A DNA stretch of 64,000 nucleotides from a virus. The notes beneath the pieces are model-generated. The model was not told where the DNA came from, searched no databases, and saw nothing but the letters and a program-made list of their open reading frames with translations. Positions 2,093-64,000 of the stretch are shown one piece after another. Every line of letters starts with the position of its first letter. The first letter of the stretch is position 1. Location of the stretch: the IMG/VR virus record IMGVR_UViG_3300028883_000046, positions 11,718-75,717 of that record, one strand, 5' to 3'. A program made the translations under genes and the position numbers.

Positions 2093-4960
2093 ATGGCAGA
2101 AAACGTTGATATTATAGTTCGCCTAAAGGACGCGGCTTCCAAGGGTATAAGAGCAATTAAAGGAAGTATGGGAGAGCTTGAGAAGTCGGTCGGTAGTACA
2201 AGAAAAATATTAGGTTCAATGGTTGGGACGCTGGGAACCCTTGCCGCTACTATAGGAGCAGGGGCTTTCTTAGGAAGTGCTATAAAGACTTTTGCAGATT
2301 TTGACACCGCTATCCGATCGGCGGGTGCGGTGTCGAATGCTACTGCCGAAGAGTTGAAGGATTTAAGCGATGCCGCAAAAGAGATGGGCAAGACAACAAA
2401 GTTTTCCGCAGTACAAGCCGCGGATGGTCTTAAACTTCTCGGCATGGCTGGCTTTGAAACAAAAGAATCAATAGAAGCACTTCCTGGCGTGCTTAATCTT
2501 GCGGCCGCCGCAGGAACAGATATTGCTACCTCTGCCGATATTGCAACCAATGTTTTGTCTGGATTTGGCCTTGAAGTAGAAAATCTTGGTCAAGTCAATG
2601 ACGTACTTGTCAAAACATTTACTTCCTCGAATACCGCTGTCCAAGAGCTGGGCGAATCCTTTAAGTACGTTGGACCTTTGTTCAAAGCAGTCGGCGGTAA
2701 CTTTGAAGAGTTATTCGCTACAATAGGAAAGCTTGGCGACGTAGGTATAAAAGGAAGTCAAGCTGGTACTGCTCTTAAAGGCGCTCTTCAACAACTTCTT
2801 AACGCTACCCCAGAACAGATCAAGCTCCAAAAAGAACTTGGCGAAAGAATTGGCCAAACTTCTTTAGAAGTACTTGACGCACAGGGAAGTTTTGTTGGCT
2901 ATACAAGAATTGTAGAGCAACTATCAAAAGCGGGCGTGAACGGTTCTCAAATATTGAAGTTATTTGGTACAGAAGCGGGCCCAGCTATGGCCGCTCTTGT
3001 AGGGCAAGGCTCGGAATCAATAAAAGAACTACAAACCGCAATTGAAGAGGCAGGAGGTATATCAGAAGAAGTAGCAAAGAAAATGGGAGCTGGCCTTGGT
3101 GGTGCAATATTAGAGGCTAAGTCCGCATTTGAAGCGGTAAAGATCGCCATTGGCGAAGCGTTTTCCGAAGATCTAATCCAAGGCATTAGAGTAGCAAGAG
3201 ACTGGCTAATTGACCTTGTTGACGTTATTAAAGAACTTAAAGAAAATGGTACAATCGAGGCATGGGCAACGGTTACAAAGATCGGATTTGGAACAGTTAC
3301 TACCTCGGCAAAGATTGCCTGGGCGGCCGTGAAAGAAGTAGTAAAGGTTTTTACCGCTCTTGGCTTGTTAGCAACCGGACAGGTGAGTGCCGCAGGAGAA
3401 GCGTTAAAGGATCTTGGTAGTGATTTTGTAGCGGTCGCAGAAAGTATGCGGCAAGAAGTAGAGAAGTCCGAAGGTACAAGATTTTTCAAAATCGATACAA
3501 GTACCGGAGAGATAACCGAGGAAGTAAACGCGGTTGGCGAGCTGATTAAAAAAGCAGTAAAGACCGGTCCAATTGGGCAAGGTGTAAAAGAGGCAAGTAA
3601 AGAACTATCCGAAGCGTTGGTGCCAAAGGCTGCTCCTGTAGAGGCTTTATTAAAGGCAGAAATGACAAAGCTTTCCGCCTTACTTTCTTTAGAGTCTACA
3701 AAAATCGAGGATAGCTATGAAAGAGGATTGATTGATCTTGAAACCTATTACAACGAAAGAGCAAAGATCATTCAAAGAAAGATGGAGCAGGAGATCCAAC
3801 TTCTTAGCCAAAAAGCATCAAGCGAAACCGACCTCGGAAAGAAAGAACTACTAAACGCCCAAATCTTTGCTAAAGAGCAAGAATTACAGGCCGCCCTTCT
3901 CAGCCTTGAGACTGAAAGATATAGAGAGCAAGACCGACTTGCTCAAGAAAGATTGTCTAAGGATCAAGCTCTAAACCAGCTCAAGCTGAAAGCAGAGCAG
4001 GCCCTTGCAGATCAAAAGAAAAGACTTGCAAACGATCCGGCATATGGATTGCAAGGACAGTTTAGCGAAGAGTTGGCAAATCTACAAACCAAACACAATG
4101 CAGAACTTGAGGAAATAAATAACTTCTACGTCCGAAAACTCGATATGCTTCGCCAACAGAAAGCGGCAGAGGCAGAGATTGAAGCAATCGCCGATGAACA
4201 GAAGAAAATGATAGACGATCAGAAGCGGATGCAGAGGGAAGAAGAGTTTCGGCTGGAACAGGATCAACAAAGTAGACTTGTTAATTTTCAATTAAACAAT
4301 TATGCCAACCTTGCAGGAGGTATGGCTGATACTCTTTCCAATGCTTACGAATTGATTGGAAAAGAAAATAAAGAAATGTTTTATGCAATGAAAGCGGCCG
4401 CCATTGCAGAGGCAGTTATAAAAACAGCTCAGGCGGTCGTGAGTGCTTATGCTACCGCCGGCAACCCATACTTGGGAATTGCAATGGCCGCAATAGTTGG
4501 CGCGGCTGGTGCCGTTCAGGTAGCAAAGATCGCCTCCCAAAGCTATGCAGAAGGCGGCTTGATTGCCGGTCAATCTCCCACAAAGACTTCTGATGATAAA
4601 CTTATAAATGCTACTTCTGGTGAATTCATGCAACCAGTGGACACGGTAGATTACTATGGGTTGGGAGTTATGGAAGCATTAAGAAGAAGAGCGATTCCGA
4701 AAGATATGTTTACCGGCTTTAACATGCCAAGTATCAAATATGGACATAGACAATTTGCAGAGGGTGGCGCGGTTACCCCCGCTTCTGGTATTCCCGATCC
4801 TAATGACGTTAAGAAAGAAGGACAGAAAACAAATATTGTTAACGTCCTCGATCCAGCAGTATTTGAGCAATGGTCGGCAAGTACTCCTGGCCAAAAAAAT
4901 ATTATGAACGTTATCTCACAAAATGCTTTCGAAGTGCGCCAGATGATACTTGGCAACTAA
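2093..4960 (+). CDS. Tail tape measure protein (TP901-like core)
   Basis: 955 aa, Ala/Gly-rich helical; 'TTKFSAVQAADGLKLLGMAG', 'LPGVLNLAAA', 'GIKGSQAGTAL'. Confidence 0.92.
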   Translation: MAENVDIIVRLKDAASKGIRAIKGSMGELEKSVGSTRKILGSMVGTLGTLAATIGAGAFLGSAIKTFADFDTAIRSAGAVSNATAEELKDLSDAAKEMGKTTKFSAVQAADGLKLLGMAGFETKESIEALPGVLNLAAAAGTDIATSADIATNVLSGFGLEVENLGQVNDVLVKTFTSSNTAVQELGESFKYVGPLFKAVGGNFEELFATIGKLGDVGIKGSQAGTALKGALQQLLNATPEQIKLQKELGERIGQTSLEVLDAQGSFVGYTRIVEQLSKAGVNGSQILKLFGTEAGPAMAALVGQGSESIKELQTAIEEAGGISEEVAKKMGAGLGGAILEAKSAFEAVKIAIGEAFSEDLIQGIRVARDWLIDLVDVIKELKENGTIEAWATVTKIGFGTVTTSAKIAWAAVKEVVKVFTALGLLATGQVSAAGEALKDLGSDFVAVAESMRQEVEKSEGTRFFKIDTSTGEITEEVNAVGELIKKAVKTGPIGQGVKEASKELSEALVPKAAPVEALLKAEMTKLSALLSLESTKIEDSYERGLIDLETYYNERAKIIQRKMEQEIQLLSQKASSETDLGKKELLNAQIFAKEQELQAALLSLETERYREQDRLAQERLSKDQALNQLKLKAEQALADQKKRLANDPAYGLQGQFSEELANLQTKHNAELEEINNFYVRKLDMLRQQKAAEAEIEAIADEQKKMIDDQKRMQREEEFRLEQDQQSRLVNFQLNNYANLAGGMADTLSNAYELIGKENKEMFYAMKAAAIAEAVIKTAQAVVSAYATAGNPYLGIAMAAIVGAAGAVQVAKIASQSYAEGGLIAGQSPTKTSDDKLINATSGEFMQPVDTVDYYGLGVMEALRRRAIPKDMFTGFNMPSIKYGHRQFAEGGAVTPASGIPDPNDVKKEGQKTNIVNVLDPAVFEQWSASTPGQKNIMNVISQNAFEVRQMILGN

Positions 4961-4972
4961 GGAGAAAACAAA

Positions 4973-6277
4973 ATGACTTTAAATGGAAAAACAACTTCTG
5001 GATCGGTTACTTCTTTTGCGGGCGCCACTGGTTTACTTCAAGCGCTACTTGACTTTGTTTCCGGTACAAAGTTAGAGGATCAAGCAACCGCAGGATCAAG
5101 TGTTGGACCGTATACCGATACGTTATCAACTCCCGTTGGTTTAGGATCAGTATTGATGAAGTATACCATTTCAGGTCTTGACTATACAGCAAGAGACGAT
5201 GGTGTTGGAGCTATAACGGGAGATTATATAGACTCTGCCTCAATCAACTATGATACAGGCGCATTAACCGTCACTCTTACAACCACACCGGATGCAAACC
5301 CAACTTATGACTATGTATATGGCGAAGACGGCGGCGATTGGGAAGTAAAGATAAATCGAAATACAAGAAATGGTAACAAAACCTCTCCCTCGGAACCATT
5401 TGGAAGTAATTGTAAGGAAGTAATTCTACATAATAGAGGATTGAGCGGTGCAGAAAATATCTTGATCGGTATAAGAGAGTGGCAATATGTAGCGGCTAAC
5501 GCATCTGGCTGGGATCTAACAGGCTTTACTTCTTATTCGGACGGCATGTATTTCGGTAGAACTTTTGAAGACCTTAGTTTAACCTATGATACTACCTGGA
5601 ACTGTTTTGAAAACGCTCCCAAACTACCGCTAATTGACGATACAATTTACTATTGGTTTTTCAGCAATAGGCAAAGAATAATAGTTATTGCGAAAGTTCA
5701 AAGTAATTACGAATCAATCTATCTTGGATTTGCCAATAGATATGGAAACCCAGAAGACTATCCTTATCCGCTCGTTATAAAAGGGAGCTTGTACGGGAAG
5801 AAAACCATTACAGAAACATCAGAGGCAAGCCATGCATTTATTCCCTATAGTACAACTTCCGGAACCAATATGCTTCATAATGTTTTGCCAGATGGTTCTT
5901 GGTCGTTGAATTGGGGAGCTTTTTCTTCGAATTACGCCACAATCCTTTTCCCTGTGTGCAATTGGAATTCTTCCAGTAGATTACTATCCGAAACACCGAA
6001 CAAAAAAGAAGTACTTCTATCACCTGTTATGTCCCTTAGCTTGGCAAATAATTCTGTACTGCATGAACTTGATGGTGTTCTACATGCGGCCGGCGTTGGC
6101 GTTCAATCTGAGGACGAAATCAGAGGGCACGATGGCATAAAATACTTGGCATTTCAAAATATATCGAGGATCGATTACGATGATTTTATGGGAGTAGCAA
6201 ATGAGGATTATACATCTACTTCCACAACAACCACAACGACGACCACGACCACGCTAACAACAACTACTACCGAATAA
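4973..6277 (+). CDS. Virion structural (tail) protein with C-terminal poly-Thr tail
   Basis: Follows tape measure; 'YWFFSNRQRIIVIAKV..YESIYLG' resembles YuA-like virion proteins; ends TSTSTTTTTTTTTTLTTTTTE. Confidence 0.65.
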   Translation: MTLNGKTTSGSVTSFAGATGLLQALLDFVSGTKLEDQATAGSSVGPYTDTLSTPVGLGSVLMKYTISGLDYTARDDGVGAITGDYIDSASINYDTGALTVTLTTTPDANPTYDYVYGEDGGDWEVKINRNTRNGNKTSPSEPFGSNCKEVILHNRGLSGAENILIGIREWQYVAANASGWDLTGFTSYSDGMYFGRTFEDLSLTYDTTWNCFENAPKLPLIDDTIYYWFFSNRQRIIVIAKVQSNYESIYLGFANRYGNPEDYPYPLVIKGSLYGKKTITETSEASHAFIPYSTTSGTNMLHNVLPDGSWSLNWGAFSSNYATILFPVCNWNSSSRLLSETPNKKEVLLSPVMSLSLANNSVLHELDGVLHAAGVGVQSEDEIRGHDGIKYLAFQNISRIDYDDFMGVANEDYTSTSTTTTTTTTTTLTTTTTE

Positions 6278-6296
6278 AGTATAAGGAGAAGAAAAA

Positions 6297-7214
6297 ATGC
6301 CTTACGTCCTGTCCGAAGATATTCGTTACAACCCGACCGATACTATGGAAGCACTGGACTACATTCGCCAATTTGCTTTGACGATTGGTTGGACCGTAGA
6401 TAATTGGGACGGCTATCGCTTGCAACTCTTCTCTCCTGGTTATTCTATTCAAAATCTTTGTTACAGATTAGAAGTAGAAACGATTGACGCCCAAGTCCAA
6501 ACTCTTGAATATAGACCGGTCATACCAGGTCAAAGACTTGTAAATATGGAACTAATGACCTCAACTTATATTTGGAATACTTCTTCCTCATATGGCAAAG
6601 TCTCTCTTCCTGCAAGTTCTTTCGATGCGCTGTACCTCTATGGGAACTCGCATTTTATAGCCGCGATTTTTCATGTTGATCCGATAGCGGTAATTACGGT
6701 TGCAATTGGCATCCCAGATCTATGGCCGTCTTGGTACTACTCTCTTGATTTCTCTTGCCACTTTCCTTGTAGCTACTATAGCGATACTTCTTCATATCAG
6801 TGGTACAACATGGCAGACAATATTAGCAATTGGTATATGCCGTGGACTTACATGGTCTCTTATGTTTATTGCGCCTGGTTTCAGGGAGAAGCAATTAATT
6901 CAAATAACTTTACAGGAAACTATCTGCCAACCACAGCCGTTGCAATAGGAGCAGAGGCGGGATCATTTAACAAACTAAACGGATTACTTCGTTATAACGA
7001 GTATACCAACAAGCGAATGGCTTTTCAATCAACGTACTTTGTTAAGTCGGAAACATTGGGCGTTTGGTACCCGATCGGTTTGTCACCCTTCGCCTGGATC
7101 AACGGAAGAGATCTTTCAATTGGTGAAGTAGTAGAGTTTGGAGCGGATCAATACAGATGTTTTCCAGCAGTATTCTCGCCAAATGAAATTTGGCAAGCTT
7201 ATAGGATATCCTAA
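6297..7214 (+). CDS. Virion structural (tail) protein
   Basis: AAGGAG RBS; 'FALTIGWTV' N-terminus like 13258 ORF; tail module context. Confidence 0.55.
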   Translation: MPYVLSEDIRYNPTDTMEALDYIRQFALTIGWTVDNWDGYRLQLFSPGYSIQNLCYRLEVETIDAQVQTLEYRPVIPGQRLVNMELMTSTYIWNTSSSYGKVSLPASSFDALYLYGNSHFIAAIFHVDPIAVITVAIGIPDLWPSWYYSLDFSCHFPCSYYSDTSSYQWYNMADNISNWYMPWTYMVSYVYCAWFQGEAINSNNFTGNYLPTTAVAIGAEAGSFNKLNGLLRYNEYTNKRMAFQSTYFVKSETLGVWYPIGLSPFAWINGRDLSIGEVVEFGADQYRCFPAVFSPNEIWQAYRIS

Positions 7215-59394: not shown

Positions 59395-59453
59395 TTTACT
59401 TCTCCTTTTGTTGGTGTTTTTAGGTAAAGATCTTTTTAAATTATAGGGAGTAC

Positions 59454-59495
59454 AAACTAAAATAGCGCCCTCGACTTTTACACCGAGGGCGCTAT
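59454..59495 (-). terminator. Rho-independent terminator
   Basis: ATAGCGCCCTCG / CGAGGGCGCTAT then TTTAGTTT on the - strand. Confidence 0.75.
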
Positions 59496-59499
59496 GTGA

Positions 59500-60408
59500 T
59501 TAGTAGTCCAAAGCTCTCTTGCTTTCGAAGTCCGGTAGGCTATCGATAGCCTTGGTCATTTTCTTTACTTTTCTCTTTACTTTGCCAATGTAGTCTTCCG
59601 AGTCGTTATCCGGATCGATTTTGCCAATCTCTTTGCGGATGTTTTCAATAACTTGCTTCAACTCTTCATGCCCAATGAAGCCGCTCCATAGTTCATCGTA
59701 CTTTTCAAAAAGTCTTCCTATACTGTTAATTGTTTTCTTTGGTATCTTGCCATCGGAAGTATACTCTTTAAGTCGTGTTATCTTGGCAAGAAACTCGTTT
59801 TTGACCACGTCCATGGTCATATTCACGATTTCCTGCATTTGGTCCTTAGCCTTCTCTACTTCTCTTTTGTATATAGCATCTGGCAAGTTCTTTCTATCAG
59901 GAACGGCGAGGACGCGGAAAATCCATTCGAAGTAAAATTTCGTTCTCAGCTTTTCTATGGAGGGATATTTTTCCCTTCGGAAGAGTCTTTTGTTTTTACT
60001 CTTCTTGAAGTTTTGGATATGTTTGTCGTAATTTTCCAAAAAGCTTTCCACGGCTTCTTTAAATCTCTCTCTTTGATTCAGGAGATACTTGTCAATCTCT
60101 TCTACCTTATCCTTTGGTACAAACTTCAAACTCCTGATGGGACAAGGAAGCAAATTGGCGTTTAGATAGTTGTACGTTTCATTATAGATCGAAACGAACG
60201 TTTTAAGCTCTTTCTTGCCGTTGGCGTCAAGTAGATCTTGAACAGTCCTAAGGACGTCTTTGTCTTTAGATATATCGTCTTGGTAAATATCTTCTTTTAC
60301 TTTTGCACGGGCGGCCCAATATCCAACACTGAGATTTATAAGGCAACCTTCCCTAAATACGTCGGTTTTAACTACTTCTTTATTTTTTCTTCTTCTTATA
60401 GCTGGCAT
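59500..60408 (-). CDS. Helical protein associated with the AAA module (possibly DUF3150-like)
   Basis: 'LINLSVGYW', 'YPS...LR.KF.F.W'; AAGGAG RBS; family call tentative. Confidence 0.5.
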   Translation of the reverse strand: MPAIRRRKNKEVVKTDVFREGCLINLSVGYWAARAKVKEDIYQDDISKDKDVLRTVQDLLDANGKKELKTFVSIYNETYNYLNANLLPCPIRSLKFVPKDKVEEIDKYLLNQRERFKEAVESFLENYDKHIQNFKKSKNKRLFRREKYPSIEKLRTKFYFEWIFRVLAVPDRKNLPDAIYKREVEKAKDQMQEIVNMTMDVVKNEFLAKITRLKEYTSDGKIPKKTINSIGRLFEKYDELWSGFIGHEELKQVIENIRKEIGKIDPDNDSEDYIGKVKRKVKKMTKAIDSLPDFESKRALDY

Positions 60409-60472
60409 TAGAAAATCTCCTTTATGCATGAATATTATAGATTAAGATTGTTTATTTATTTTAAAAAGATCT

Positions 60473-61924
60473 TTAATAATCAATTGCTCTCTTCTTCGAC
60501 TTTCCATTGTCTATAGAGGTTGAAGCTGGAATCGCGTTTTGCTTTGCCCATTGCTCTAATTGGTCAATTGAACTTTTCATCGTTTTGGATATCGGGATAA
60601 CGTACTTGGAAGCTTTATCAAGTGTTATTCCCATCATTGCGGCAATGCGACAACAAGTCTTAACTTCCGCACCGCTCCAACCTTGCATATCTTTTGAAGT
60701 GAATTTTCCTGCCTTGACGTTATACTCTTTCATGTAGAATTTTAGAATTTCTTTCAACTCTTTTTCGCTTGGCAAGCCTAAGTAGAATATCCCATCCCAT
60801 CTTTCACTTCTTTTGTATTCGGGAGGCAAGTTGGCGATAGAGTTGCAGGTGGCTACAATGTAAATGCCCGGTCTATCATCGGACATAAACTTCAATAACA
60901 TCGAAGCCGAGCGCTTTCCCGTGCTATCGGTTGAAGCTTCTTGACTTGTAGCAGACAAGCCCTTCTCGATTTCATCAAAGAAGAGGACCGCGTTACCAAT
61001 AGACTTGACAGTCTTAATCATTTTTGCCCATGCGGCTTCGGCTTGTCCATACAGGCCACTTCCTTGCATTTCGGCAAGCTCCGCTTCTATCATTACTTTA
61101 TTGGTCATGCTCGATATATATCTGGCAAAATGAGTCTTGCCCGTTCCTGGAGGGCCGATAATCAATATCCCTTTTGAGATAGGAGAGTTAATACTCTTCA
61201 AAACGAATTCTTTGATGTTTTCATATCCAAGCAACTCGGAAACTTTATACTTCCCAACTTTCAACCCAACCGAACTTTCAATTTCCTGTTTTCGAAGTTC
61301 GCCAATATCTTTTGGATCGATACTTCCTTTGTTTTTTATAATGCTATATGAAATAGCGTTTTGGATCGACTTTAGAGACAAGCCTCGACAACTTTCAACA
61401 ATATCCAACGCATCGCTCTTGCTTGGGCTTTTAAAGTTAGGATTCGTCTTCTCAGCCTCTACAAGCTTATCCAAATAGATCTGGATCTCTTCGAACGTTG
61501 GCAGATCAAAATCAAGTTGAATGAAATCTCTTTTCAATTCATCCGGGACGGCTTCTTCGAAAGGACTGTTACCGACAATTAGAAGTGCTTTTCTGTTTAC
61601 TCTGCTTTCGAATTCGGATAGATGATTTGAAAAGTAGGTTACGAGCTGATAATCAATCTCTCCGGTTACTTTGTCTTTTAAGAACCAATTTAAATTTCTG
61701 AAAACTAACAGATCATAGCTTGCGGATGCATCGATAAATGGAACGATACTTCCCTTGTCCCAATCCATTGATTCGAAATCCCAAATCTTTACTTCTCGCC
61801 AATTGCTTTCTCCCTCTTTCATTATGTCAAGGAGAGTAGCGAGGAAACGGTCTTGCTCGTCCGTTTGGCAGTAGAAGAAAACATAACCGGCATTCAGTGC
61901 GGTTTTTATTTCATTGATATTCAT
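60473..61924 (-). CDS. AAA+ ATPase (Ycf46-like)
   Basis: Degenerate N-terminal AAA domain, then 'GPPGTGKT', 'FFDEIEK', 'ATCN..LPPE..R..RWD', 'GWSGAE'. Confidence 0.85.
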   Translation of the reverse strand: MNINEIKTALNAGYVFFYCQTDEQDRFLATLLDIMKEGESNWREVKIWDFESMDWDKGSIVPFIDASASYDLLVFRNLNWFLKDKVTGEIDYQLVTYFSNHLSEFESRVNRKALLIVGNSPFEEAVPDELKRDFIQLDFDLPTFEEIQIYLDKLVEAEKTNPNFKSPSKSDALDIVESCRGLSLKSIQNAISYSIIKNKGSIDPKDIGELRKQEIESSVGLKVGKYKVSELLGYENIKEFVLKSINSPISKGILIIGPPGTGKTHFARYISSMTNKVMIEAELAEMQGSGLYGQAEAAWAKMIKTVKSIGNAVLFFDEIEKGLSATSQEASTDSTGKRSASMLLKFMSDDRPGIYIVATCNSIANLPPEYKRSERWDGIFYLGLPSEKELKEILKFYMKEYNVKAGKFTSKDMQGWSGAEVKTCCRIAAMMGITLDKASKYVIPISKTMKSSIDQLEQWAKQNAIPASTSIDNGKSKKRAIDY

Positions 61925-61951
61925 TATTCGATTCCTTTCGTATAGGATGAT

Positions 61952-62158
61952 TTACTTCTGGAAGGTGCTCAGTTTTCTATCATAGGATCTAAGTTGCATT
62001 GATTTAGAAATTTCTTTTTTGGTAGTTTTTCTTTCGGACATATGCTCTTCTATCATGTCAAAAAAATCGTCCGCGCTTTGATGATTCGCTCCGCTGATTT
62101 GTCCGGTTTCAAACTTTATCGTGCCATCCTCTAATACTTCGATATTTATAATATCCAT
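61952..62158 (-). CDS. Small protein (DUF2997-like)
   Basis: 'INIEVLEDGTIKFET'; position upstream of the Ycf46-like ATPase. Confidence 0.5.
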   Translation of the reverse strand: MDIINIEVLEDGTIKFETGQISGANHQSADDFFDMIEEHMSERKTTKKEISKSMQLRSYDRKLSTFQK

Positions 62159-62179
62159 TTTTTCTTCTCCCTATTTGAA

Positions 62180-62500
62180 TTAAAATTTGGTTGCTTTGAA
62201 TTTATTTTCGGAAAGCTTCTTTAACATCCAGTTTTTCTTCTTTGCCACTTTTTGAATTACTTGGGCACTGTATTGTCGTTTGATCTTTGCAAATAGATCG
62301 GTTTCGGTAACAGGATATTTTACGGATTGCTCGTTTAGATCAAAGGTGAAAGTAGATCTACCATTAGGCGTATAGGCTCTAATTCTGTTTGATTGTCTTA
62401 CCACTGTGAAGTTGAGCGCTTTAAGCGCTTCCAGTAGTATTTCTTCGCTCTTCAAATTAAATGTTTTTATCGTCATTTCGTTTACTTCATAGCACGGCAT
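62180..62500 (-). CDS. Ycf35/DUF1257-like protein
   Basis: 'LLEALKALNF', 'IKRQYSAQVIQKVAKKKNW'. Confidence 0.5.
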   Translation of the reverse strand: MPCYEVNEMTIKTFNLKSEEILLEALKALNFTVVRQSNRIRAYTPNGRSTFTFDLNEQSVKYPVTETDLFAKIKRQYSAQVIQKVAKKKNWMLKKLSENKFKATKF

Positions 62501-62524
62501 AATAGCCTCCTTATTTGTTAAGAG

Positions 62525-62770
62525 TTATTTAATTTTAGCTTTTCTACCGACGGCATAGGTAAATTTCCCAATGTTATAATGAAAGCAAAGGAAGACCTCT
62601 TCTCCTTGCCTGAATCCTGAGAAGCAATCGTCCCAACACTCACAATTGAAGAGAAGTTCCATTTGTTCGTTGTTTGCTTCACATTTTTGTTTTGCTTCAT
62701 CCATTAGTTCTTTCTTTAGATTGTCCAACTTAGACAGATCAAAACTTTCCGGGAGAGATACGTTTTTCAT
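62525..62770 (-). CDS. Hypothetical protein
   Basis: AAGGA RBS; directly downstream of the ribozyme. Confidence 0.6.
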   Translation of the reverse strand: MKNVSLPESFDLSKLDNLKKELMDEAKQKCEANNEQMELLFNCECWDDCFSGFRQGEEVFLCFHYNIGKFTYAVGRKAKIK

Positions 62771-62804
62771 TTTTTTCTTCCTTTGGTTTGTTTTGATTTA
62801 ATTT

Positions 62805-62878
62805 ACTACTTGGCTAATCATCAGTTAGAAAGCGCCACCCAACTAATACGCCCTCGAAAGGGCGTTTCATATAGTAGT
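62805..62878 (-). ncRNA. Type II hammerhead ribozyme
   Basis: - strand: ACUACU-AUAU-GAAA-CGCCCU(UUCG)AGGGCG-UA / UUAG..UGGC..CUAA-CUGAUGA-UUA-GCCA-AGUAGU; full core, three stems, UGGC/GCCA pseudoknot potential. Confidence 0.85.
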
Positions 62879-62882
62879 TTTT

Positions 62883-63233
62883 TTATTTGGCTGATTTGAA
62901 AGTATTAAGAATTCCTTGCATAATGCCAAAGTACTCGGCTAAAAAAACTCGCTCTGGCGGTATATCGTTTCCAAACAAAGTTGTTTTCTTATACTCGTTA
63001 GAAATGTCTACTGAAAAGTCGCCAATTGGAAGTTCATGATCATTGGTAAATACTTCGATTGGAATTCCTTTATGCCCATCATAGAAAGGCGTTGCAAAAA
63101 CTCGGATAGTGTTTTCTTCATTTTCCCAACATATGACGCCGGTCATGTCGCAAACATCATAGGAAAACCCTTCAATTTCTTTTCCGGCTTTTTCTTTCAA
63201 AATTTCATATGCTTTTTCGCAATCAATTTTCAT
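62883..63233 (-). CDS. Hypothetical protein
   Basis: GGAGAAGTAAAATG start. Confidence 0.6.
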   Translation of the reverse strand: MKIDCEKAYEILKEKAGKEIEGFSYDVCDMTGVICWENEENTIRVFATPFYDGHKGIPIEVFTNDHELPIGDFSVDISNEYKKTTLFGNDIPPERVFLAEYFGIMQGILNTFKSAK

Positions 63234-63266
63234 TTTACTTCTCCTTTTAGGACAGATTGTTTTTAA

Positions 63267-63629
63267 TTAAAGAGTATACAGGATTGTTACAAGACGATTG
63301 GATAGAGAATATATATAGGCATCATCTCTTTCGTTTGTCTCCCAATCTTGCTCTGGGCAAGAGACTGGGCCATCTATGTCATATTTTGGAACTTGGTTAA
63401 CATTCGCTTTTTCTTCCATCTCTTTGACTCGCTGGTTAACCCATACTTTTTTAAAAGTCTTGTTTTCCATTTTACTTCTCCTATTAGGAGTTGGTTGATA
63501 ATTGTGTGTAGAGTCGTTTTTCATTGCTTCTAAGGAATCGATCATATCTTGAAATGATTTTTGCCTCTGCCTAAACCAATAGACGTCCGTTTGAGCATAA
63601 TGTTTGTTTTCTGGATTCTTGTTTTCCAT
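63267..63629 (-). CDS. Hypothetical protein, apparent two-cassette fusion with internal start at 63470
   Basis: Internal exact copy of the RBS/start block. Confidence 0.55.
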   Translation of the reverse strand: MENKNPENKHYAQTDVYWFRQRQKSFQDMIDSLEAMKNDSTHNYQPTPNRRSKMENKTFKKVWVNQRVKEMEEKANVNQVPKYDIDGPVSCPEQDWETNERDDAYIYSLSNRLVTILYTL

Positions 63630-63655
63630 TTTACTTCTCCTATTAGGAGTTGGTT
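63458..63655. repeat. 39-bp exact direct repeat (63458-63496 and 63617-63655)
   Basis: TCTTGTTTTCCATTTTACTTCTCCTATTAGGAGTTGGTT twice, 159 bp apart. Confidence 0.9.
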
Positions 63656-63890
63656 AGTAATCGTATTCGGTTTTTATTGCTTCCAAGGAATCGATCATAT
63701 CTTGCATTGATCCTTGCCCGTCTACTCTGCTATTTATATGGTTGAACCAATATGCTTTCGCTCGCGCATATTGTTGACTTTCTTTTCCTAAAGTCTTTGC
63801 CACAATTTTAAGATTTTCTTTGTTCAGCTCTTTGATGATTTCCATGTTTTCTTCAAACTTCATTATGTCGCCTCTGATTTCTTTTTTCAT
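63654..63890 (-). CDS. Hypothetical protein
   Basis: GGAGAAG RBS. Confidence 0.6.
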   Translation of the reverse strand: MKKEIRGDIMKFEENMEIIKELNKENLKIVAKTLGKESQQYARAKAYWFNHINSRVDGQGSMQDMIDSLEAIKTEYDY

Positions 63891-63892
63891 TT

Positions 63893-64000
63893 TTACTTCT
63901 CCTTTATAAGTTTTTCGGCAAAATCTTTTGCTTTCTTTAAACCATTAGGCTCGACAAAATAAGCTAACAATTGATAATCCTCGATATCGATAAGTTGATA
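63893..64000 (-). CDS. 3' end of a gene truncated by the window edge
   Basis: Open frame YQLIDIED...KLIKEK*. Confidence 0.5.
   Translation of the reverse strand, partial: YQLIDIEDYQLLAYFVEPNGLKKAKDFAEKLIKEK

Follow-up and report, generated by a model that had tools for sequence, protein, structure and literature searches.

A divergent type II hammerhead motif in a predicted early operon of an uncultured marine-sediment phage

The RNA element described here is found in an IMG/VR contig of 75,717 bp from an uncultured marine-sediment phage; "the window" refers to the whole 64,000-nucleotide stretch of this contig that was analysed. The contig has a 'direct terminal repeat' of exactly 127 bp, and because this repeat resembles assembler overlap we treat the map as circular, with 75,590 bp. 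The idea that the contig end is a physical genome end was rejected, since a terminal repeat of exactly 127 bp is typical of assembly overlap. Genes diverge from a point at about 17 to 183 (contig positions), where the leftward arm starts, and the element lies about 1 kb into this arm. The leftward operon contains, in order, ORF78, ORF120, ORF116, the hammerhead motif, ORF81, ORF106, ORF68, an AAA ATPase gene, a DUF3150 gene and a terminator. We infer the label 'early operon', or 'early region', from this gene order, which makes it a reasonable one. The principal features of the locus are as follows.

62883-63233, minus strand: ORF116, the upstream gene, with its stop codon 4 nt ahead of the element
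62805-62878, minus (coding) strand: the whole hammerhead-like element, of type II topology, 74 nt long, in the 112-nt gap between ORF116 and ORF81
62525-62770, minus strand: ORF81, the downstream gene, with an SD-like AAGGAAG at 62783-62777, 34 nt past the CUGAUGA of the element
60473-61924, minus strand: AAA+ ATPase gene (PF00004, phrog_8638)
59462-59495, minus strand: strong intrinsic terminator with a 14-bp stem and the tail UUUAGUUUGU, which ends the unit ORF78-DUF3150

The element occupies the only long gap in a block of small genes, measuring 112 nt versus 21 to 43 nt for the neighbouring gaps. The first-pass annotation had placed the motif just after the upstream stop and upstream of the AAA gene, and both statements are right: the TAA of ORF116 is at 62885-62883, and the AAA gene lies downstream at the position given above. 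The terminator that closes the unit is located in a 105-nt gap after the DUF3150 gene (59395-59499, minus strand; z = -4.05 for the gap), and a TATAAT-like box follows it within this gap. ORF116 has no homologue except itself among 5.8 billion proteins, and a blastn search of the locus against GenBank phages returned no match. The only public run with this phage is a marine-sediment metagenome, in which unitigs cover the locus at a k-mer depth of ~12,800; the contigs of this marine-sediment DNA run exhibit no variant over the element.

Read as minus-strand RNA from 62878 to 62805, the element is ACUACU-AUAU-GAAA-CGCCCU-UUCG-AGGGCG-UA|UUAG-UUGGGUGGCGCUUU-CUAA-CUGAUGA-UU-A-GCCA-AGUAGU, where the vertical bar marks the predicted cleavage site. 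Its parts, in transcript order, are these.

62878-62873, minus strand: 5' strand (ACUACU) of an outer 6-bp helix that closes stem II past the pseudoknot strand
62872-62869, minus strand: AUAU, in which U11.1 is 62869 and is mismatched with U10.1
Within AUAU, minus strand: A11.2 and U11.3, which pair with U10.2 and A10.3, and A62872, unpaired opposite the GCCA bulge
62868-62866, minus strand: core G12 A13 A14 (GAA), from sequence and Rfam alignment
62865-62848, minus strand: stem III hairpin ACGCCCU/UUCG/AGGGCGU, 7 bp including A15.1-U16.1
62847/62846, minus strand: predicted scissile bond, 3' of A17 (62847) and 5' of U1.1 (62846), from position in the Rfam alignment
62846-62825, minus strand: stem I hairpin, 22 nt, closed by UUAG (62846-62843) and CUAA (62828-62825)
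62837-62834, minus strand: loop I bases UGGC, inside the stem I hairpin
62824-62818, minus strand: core C3 U4 G5 A6 U7 G8 A9 (CUGAUGA)
62817-62815, minus strand: U10.1 and U10.2 (UU, 62817-62816) and A10.3 (62815)
62814-62811, minus strand: GCCA strand, complementary to the loop I UGGC
62810-62805, minus strand: 3' strand of the outer helix (AGUAGU), from sequence and fold

Re-reading the minus strand shows that every element and coordinate listed in the first-pass annotation is correct, and the cut that it predicted between 62847 and 62846 falls at the correct position by the Rfam alignment, cleavage itself being a prediction. The invariant core is complete, comprising C3 U4 G5 A6 N7 G8 A9, G12 A13 A14, the A15.1-U16.1 pair (A62865-U62848) and A62847 as H17. 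Three helices surround this core in the type II arrangement: loops cap stems I and III, and stem II is left open. Stem I, far weaker than is usual, begins with four Watson-Crick pairs (UUAG/CUAA), followed by two U-U mismatches and one G-U pair. Stem II consists of a U-U mismatch, 2 bp made only of A and U, and the 6-bp outer helix. The usual G10.1-C11.1 closing pair of stem II is absent, and U62817-U62869 stands in its place. The replaced base G10.1 is part of the A9/G10.1 metal site.

The Infernal search with Rfam hammerhead models that the first-pass annotation named as a check supports its assignment in part. RF02276 (Hammerhead_II) matches end to end, over model positions 1-66/66 at 62808-62872, and the match is significant, but its 33.0 bits are 4 bits under the gathering score of 37 bits that Rfam sets for this family. 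A scan at the default Rfam threshold accordingly reports nothing for the element. The E-value is 0.0079 for the 64-kb window searched on both strands with 4227 Rfam families, 3.7e-5 for a 301-nt region, and 2.3e-6 for the genome with RF02276 alone. No ribozyme besides this hammerhead is found in an Rfam scan of the 75.7-kb genome. The alignment agrees with the model at GAAAC, stem III, the loop UGG, CUGAUGA and the tail AGCCAA, and loses bits at stem I, where five pairs are non-standard, and at stem II.

A scan of IMG/VR with a pattern in which stem III and the two strands of the core were the only fixed parts yielded 128 other type II hammerheads, with which the window copy can be compared. 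Since the pattern left the 10.1/11.1 pair free, its distribution could be counted over all 129: the pair is G-C in 82, another 42 combine G-C with a U inserted after A9, and the rarer forms are two G-U, one A-U and two U-U, one of the last being the window copy. The other U-U copy belongs to L016 (IMGVR_UViG_3300032278_000067) and scores 44 bits, so the mismatch by itself does not put a hammerhead under the threshold. The first-pass annotation had singled out a U-U first pair of stem II as a departure from the usual G-C, and the pair is indeed present (62817/62869). It is not novel, as U10.1-U11.1 at the start of stem II is documented in natural hammerheads (PMC3088659, section 8) and was the most active mispair in older mutagenesis, as cited in the same paper (PMC3088659). 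G10.1-C11.1 is therefore usual, not obligatory. The exact UU-AGCCA variant pattern gave 0 matches over viral contigs.

Two further observations arose from this survey. An extra U between A9 and G10.1 (CUGAUGA-U-GGC) is present in 42 of the 129 viral hammerheads with a consensus stem III. Stem II in the Rfam consensus structure is apparently offset by one position from the true 10.1-11.1 pair. Also, L016 carries six tandem type II hammerheads at 3800-6400, spaced by ~500 bp and scoring 30 to 49 bits, and three of the six have G-U, U-U or A-U replacing G-C at 10.1-11.1.

The window copy belongs to a pseudoknotted subclass, common in phages, in which a stem II 'GC' is followed by an AGCCAA tail. 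The UGGC/GCCA pseudoknot has four Watson-Crick base pairs in alignment columns identical to those of the consensus UGG/AGCCA; its bases are U10-G11-G12-C13 of the stem I module plus GCCA, and they correspond column for column with the AGCCAA subclass. In other natural hammerheads this pseudoknot measures 2 to 7 bp, mostly 3 to 5. At 22 nt, stem I is as long as in the consensus, and pairing is kept in its outer four pairs even though both strands depart from the common sequence. It contains four contiguous pairs, one of them G-C, compared with medians of 7 and 5 among 113 natural hammerheads. Stem III is the same as in the type II consensus and in the 128 other viral hammerheads.

The outer helix is rarer. 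Of 113 other type II hammerheads, just 3 have a Watson-Crick outer helix of at least 6 bp at any place in their flanks. ACUACU/AGUAGU directly abuts the pseudoknot strand, so that GCCA becomes a bulge in a lengthened stem II. Among 113 other phage copies, 97 are followed within 80 nt of CUGAUGA by an SD-like site and start codon, at a median of 14 nt; the distance of 34 nt from CUGAUGA to the SD-like site in the window is accounted for by the outer helix.

Structure prediction points to a strong competitor of the hammerhead fold. The minimum-energy fold of an 83-nt segment containing the element (-25.1 kcal/mol, z = -3.4 versus shuffles) is not that of a hammerhead. It retains the outer helix and stem III, and stem I is swapped for a register-shifted helix.

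62847-62838 paired with 62829-62820, minus strand: competing 10-bp helix AUUAGUUGGG/UCUAACUGAU, from the minimum-energy fold

This helix pairs A17 and C3-U7 and so excludes the active fold, and it arises easily, in that UUAG pairs with CUAA as well as with CUGA. The nested hammerhead fold has an energy of -14.2 kcal/mol, and as hairpins alone stem I has -1.7 kcal/mol against -8.2 kcal/mol for the alternative. In the partition function, pairs of the alternative helix have probabilities of 0.85 to 0.97, versus 5e-5 for the tested stem I pair, and the alternative helix accounts for over 85% of the nested ensemble. The penalty for adopting the catalytic fold, 6.8 kcal/mol, ranks third from the top among 114 natural hammerheads (top 3%) measured in the same way, for which the median is 0.9.

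Nearest-neighbour folding models omit both the pseudoknot and the core tertiary contacts, and it is in such a nested model that the alternative helix is favoured by 6.8 to 10.9 kcal/mol. By our estimate the pseudoknot is worth about -9 kcal/mol of stacking. It should shift the balance towards the active fold and reduce the energy gap, because a 5-nt linker is, on our steric estimate, too short to span the 10-bp helix. As modelled, then, the folding result is a serious caution for activity and no refutation.

Comparison with related phages places the element in a setting where ribozymes recur. A protein search detects many homologues of the AAA ATPase, among them P0003 (77% identity) and P0004 (62%). 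An alignment of AAA homologues (A1) was used to retrieve viral loci, and the relatives obtained in this way have at most 43% AAA identity. The closest usable relative is L121 (IMGVR_UViG_3300032053_000268; AAA 43% identity), which shares ORF106, ORF68, AAA and DUF3150 with the window in identical order. L121 contains three type II hammerheads at 671-738, 1096-1162 and 2357-2422 (58, 49 and 72 bits) and two pistol ribozymes at 3001-3069 and 3854-3922 (54 and 64 bits). All five are on the coding strand, no more than 3.3 kb upstream of AAA, and each resides in a gap, at a stop codon or just past one; the remainder of the 34-kb record has no ribozymes. The L121 hammerheads are of the AGCCAA-tail subclass, like the window copy, and all have CUGAAGA, with A at position 7. 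A single small, non-homologous ORF separates the pistol ribozyme at 3854-3922 from the ORF106 homologue downstream of it, and the window hammerhead is in exactly this slot. Both operons are thus punctuated by ribozymes, with one in the window and five in syntenic L121.

No ribozyme occurs in the available stretches of four other relatives with the AAA module, all of which are fragments, and from these four we conclude that the ribozyme is dispensable in the lineage. Ribozymes therefore appear to be gained or lost within the lineage, and to judge from synteny the setting of the element is typical for real ribozymes of phages. Scans with the single AAA protein over viral contigs and over metagenome contigs gave one relative each, at 26% identity, with 607 nt upstream that lack a hammerhead. 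Searching genome contigs with A1 returned only generic AAA ATPases (at most 32% identity), and hence no prophage relatives and no clue to the host. An AAA+ ATPase gene followed by a DUF3150 gene is itself a conserved two-gene module in uncultured phages (59500-61924 of the window, minus strand, and L121-L124), and the order is rearranged in L123.

The full core, the topology, the position of the pseudoknot, the significant Rfam match and the synteny with L121 together bear out the first-pass identification of the RNA as a type II hammerhead motif between two phage genes, and we hold it very probable that the element is a type II hammerhead by descent. A chance motif was rejected on the covariance-model E-value, the pseudoknot match and the ribozymes of syntenic L121. 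A related proposal is that there is no ribozyme at all, and that a G+C-rich hairpin followed by UAUUAGUU acts as a weak terminator, attenuator or RNA-stability hairpin beside a coincidental core. The stem and tail do resemble the terminator at 59462-59495: both have CGCCCU...UCGAGGGCG, followed by UAUUAGUU in the element versus CUAUUUUAGUU in the terminator, and CGCCCTN{2,16}AGGGCG occurs in the 64 kb only at these two sites, versus 0.01 expected. However, a terminator scan of 60000-64000 flags nothing, the hairpin stem is the type II consensus stem III, GAAA, CUGAUGA, the loop UGG(C) and the AGCCAA tail are in the correct order and spacing (E = 0.008 window-wide), and the syntenic relative has true ribozymes, all of which make this proposal very improbable. 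The likeness between stem III and the terminator may reflect chance, duplication or a shared binding factor, and the RNA may have a dual role as a ribozyme and a terminator-like hairpin.

Whether the hammerhead still works is less easily decided. It might be a decaying relic that descended from an active L121-like type II hammerhead, lost the strength of stems I and II in an A/T-rich genome, and is now dead or irrelevant, at most a stable hairpin spacer. Such decay would fit the score under the gathering threshold, the two U-U and one G-U in stem I, the U-U closing pair of stem II, and an ensemble dominated by the alternative helix with an energy penalty in the top 3% of natural hammerheads. 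The lone ribozyme of this genome versus five in L121 would fit it too, and the lack of ribozymes in the available stretches of four relatives suggests ongoing loss in the lineage. Yet ~13 invariant core bases and 8 pseudoknot bases are all unchanged despite widely differing stems, base pairing persists in the outer four pairs of stem I, and immediately next to the pseudoknot strand lies a 6-bp helix, of a length seen in just 3 of 113 others, as though to make up for a weak stem II. The nearest-neighbour model behind the penalty leaves out the pseudoknot and core tertiary contacts, and the pseudoknot should, with its 5-nt linker and on steric estimate, favour the active fold. A relic is a tentative reading that we take seriously and would not adopt. 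Another proposal keeps the hammerhead functional and has the alternative helix hold it off until something shifts the fold, for instance Mg2+, a change in temperature, a protein or the movement of ribosomes at the stop codon of ORF116. The two folds are well defined and mutually exclusive, with the outer helix and stem III common to both; the stop codon of ORF116 is 4 nt from the outer helix, so that a stopped ribosome would cover its 5' strand; and regulated cleavage has been raised for slow phage variants (PMC3088659). Against this, the alternative helix has no sign of being conserved or selected, arises easily from the pairing of UUAG with both CUAA and CUGA, and comes with no identified ligand- or protein-binding feature, and we consider regulation of this kind unlikely. 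On the folding models, a natural conformational switch, in which the shifted helix masks A17 and C3-U7, the outer helix makes the pseudoknot strand a bulge of stem II, and cleavage is gated, would be slightly less likely still. If it were true, gating could come from ribosome release at the stop 4 nt upstream, or from sediment cold or Mg2+, and the splitting of the early operon would be coupled to translation or environment.

The reading that we prefer, at a probability of roughly 0.5, is that of a genuine but divergent, A/U-enriched type II hammerhead by descent that cleaves a predicted leftward early operon RNA. We suspect selection on the window copy because its core and pseudoknot are intact and its outer helix seems to compensate, and the feeble stem I and dominant alternative fold are our reason to expect slow cleavage or decay. 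Any cleavage would probably lag behind that of consensus hammerheads in rate or completeness. Judged from its sequence, physiologically relevant self-cleavage by the window copy is about an even bet.

In this preferred reading, stems I and III would fold as hairpins upon transcription, and the flanks would then make stem II, with its U-U mismatch, two A-U pairs and extra 6-bp outer helix. Pairing of the loop I UGGC with the GCCA bulge would hold stems I and II parallel, and the 2'-OH of A62847 would attack its own 3' phosphate. The upstream three-gene RNA would be left with the stem III hairpin and a 2',3'-cyclic phosphate at its 3' end, and the downstream RNA (ORF81-DUF3150) would begin with a 5'-OH and the stem I hairpin, ~60 nt ahead of the ORF81 ribosome-binding site. 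The two halves of the operon could then differ in stability and expression. Differential stability of cleaved halves is the usual proposal for such RNAs (PMC3088659).

The nearest known system is the type II hammerhead of RF02276 with a pseudoknot between loop I and the 3' tail (PMC3088659). The window copy shares its core, topology and stem III sequence, as well as the 22-nt stem I module, the UGG(C) loop, the AGCCAA tail and the 4-bp pseudoknot, and the setting is alike: both lie on the coding strand, between phage genes, just past a stop codon. Unlike RF02276 type II RNAs, it has U-U for G10.1-C11.1 (a variation described in PMC3088659), a stem II of A and U only, a stem I cut to four contiguous pairs, a strong competing fold and a score 4 bits under the threshold. 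Its pseudoknot strand is an internal bulge closed by a 6-bp helix, whereas that of RF02276 type II is a free 3' tail.

Ribozyme-punctuated operons of phages and prophages (PMC3088659, Figure 3; L121) offer a second comparison, in that a ribozyme lies among small genes upstream of the module ORF106-ORF68-AAA ATPase-DUF3150. The array of L121 has five strong ribozymes, whereas the window has a single weak one. Hammerhead arrays have been proposed to cut phage transcripts to gene-length mRNAs, and three arrays cleaved in vitro (PMC3088659). HHphage, the hammerhead of haloviruses HF1/HF2 (PMC3088659), likewise has a variant core and lies a short way upstream of the start of a gene in an early polycistronic transcript of the phage, and for HHphage a 5' end mapped near the cleavage site suggests activity in vivo (PMC3088659). 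HHphage differs in its core insertions 2a and 2b and in its archaeal high-salt host, and comparison of the two hammerheads gives no sign of kinship.

Intergenic type II hammerheads have been on record in phages since 2011, and one further copy adds little in itself. The window copy is of use as a boundary case for annotation, with a full core and pseudoknot, yet a sub-threshold score and a strong competing fold. It could bear on the extent to which stems can weaken in a pseudoknotted hammerhead, and on the number of real ribozymes that the threshold misses in A/T-rich phages. A hammerhead in the window and a pistol ribozyme in L121, at one slot of a syntenic operon, amount to class swapping. 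Such swapping, as it appears from the gene order, argues that the selected function would be cleavage itself, not the sequence of the RNA.
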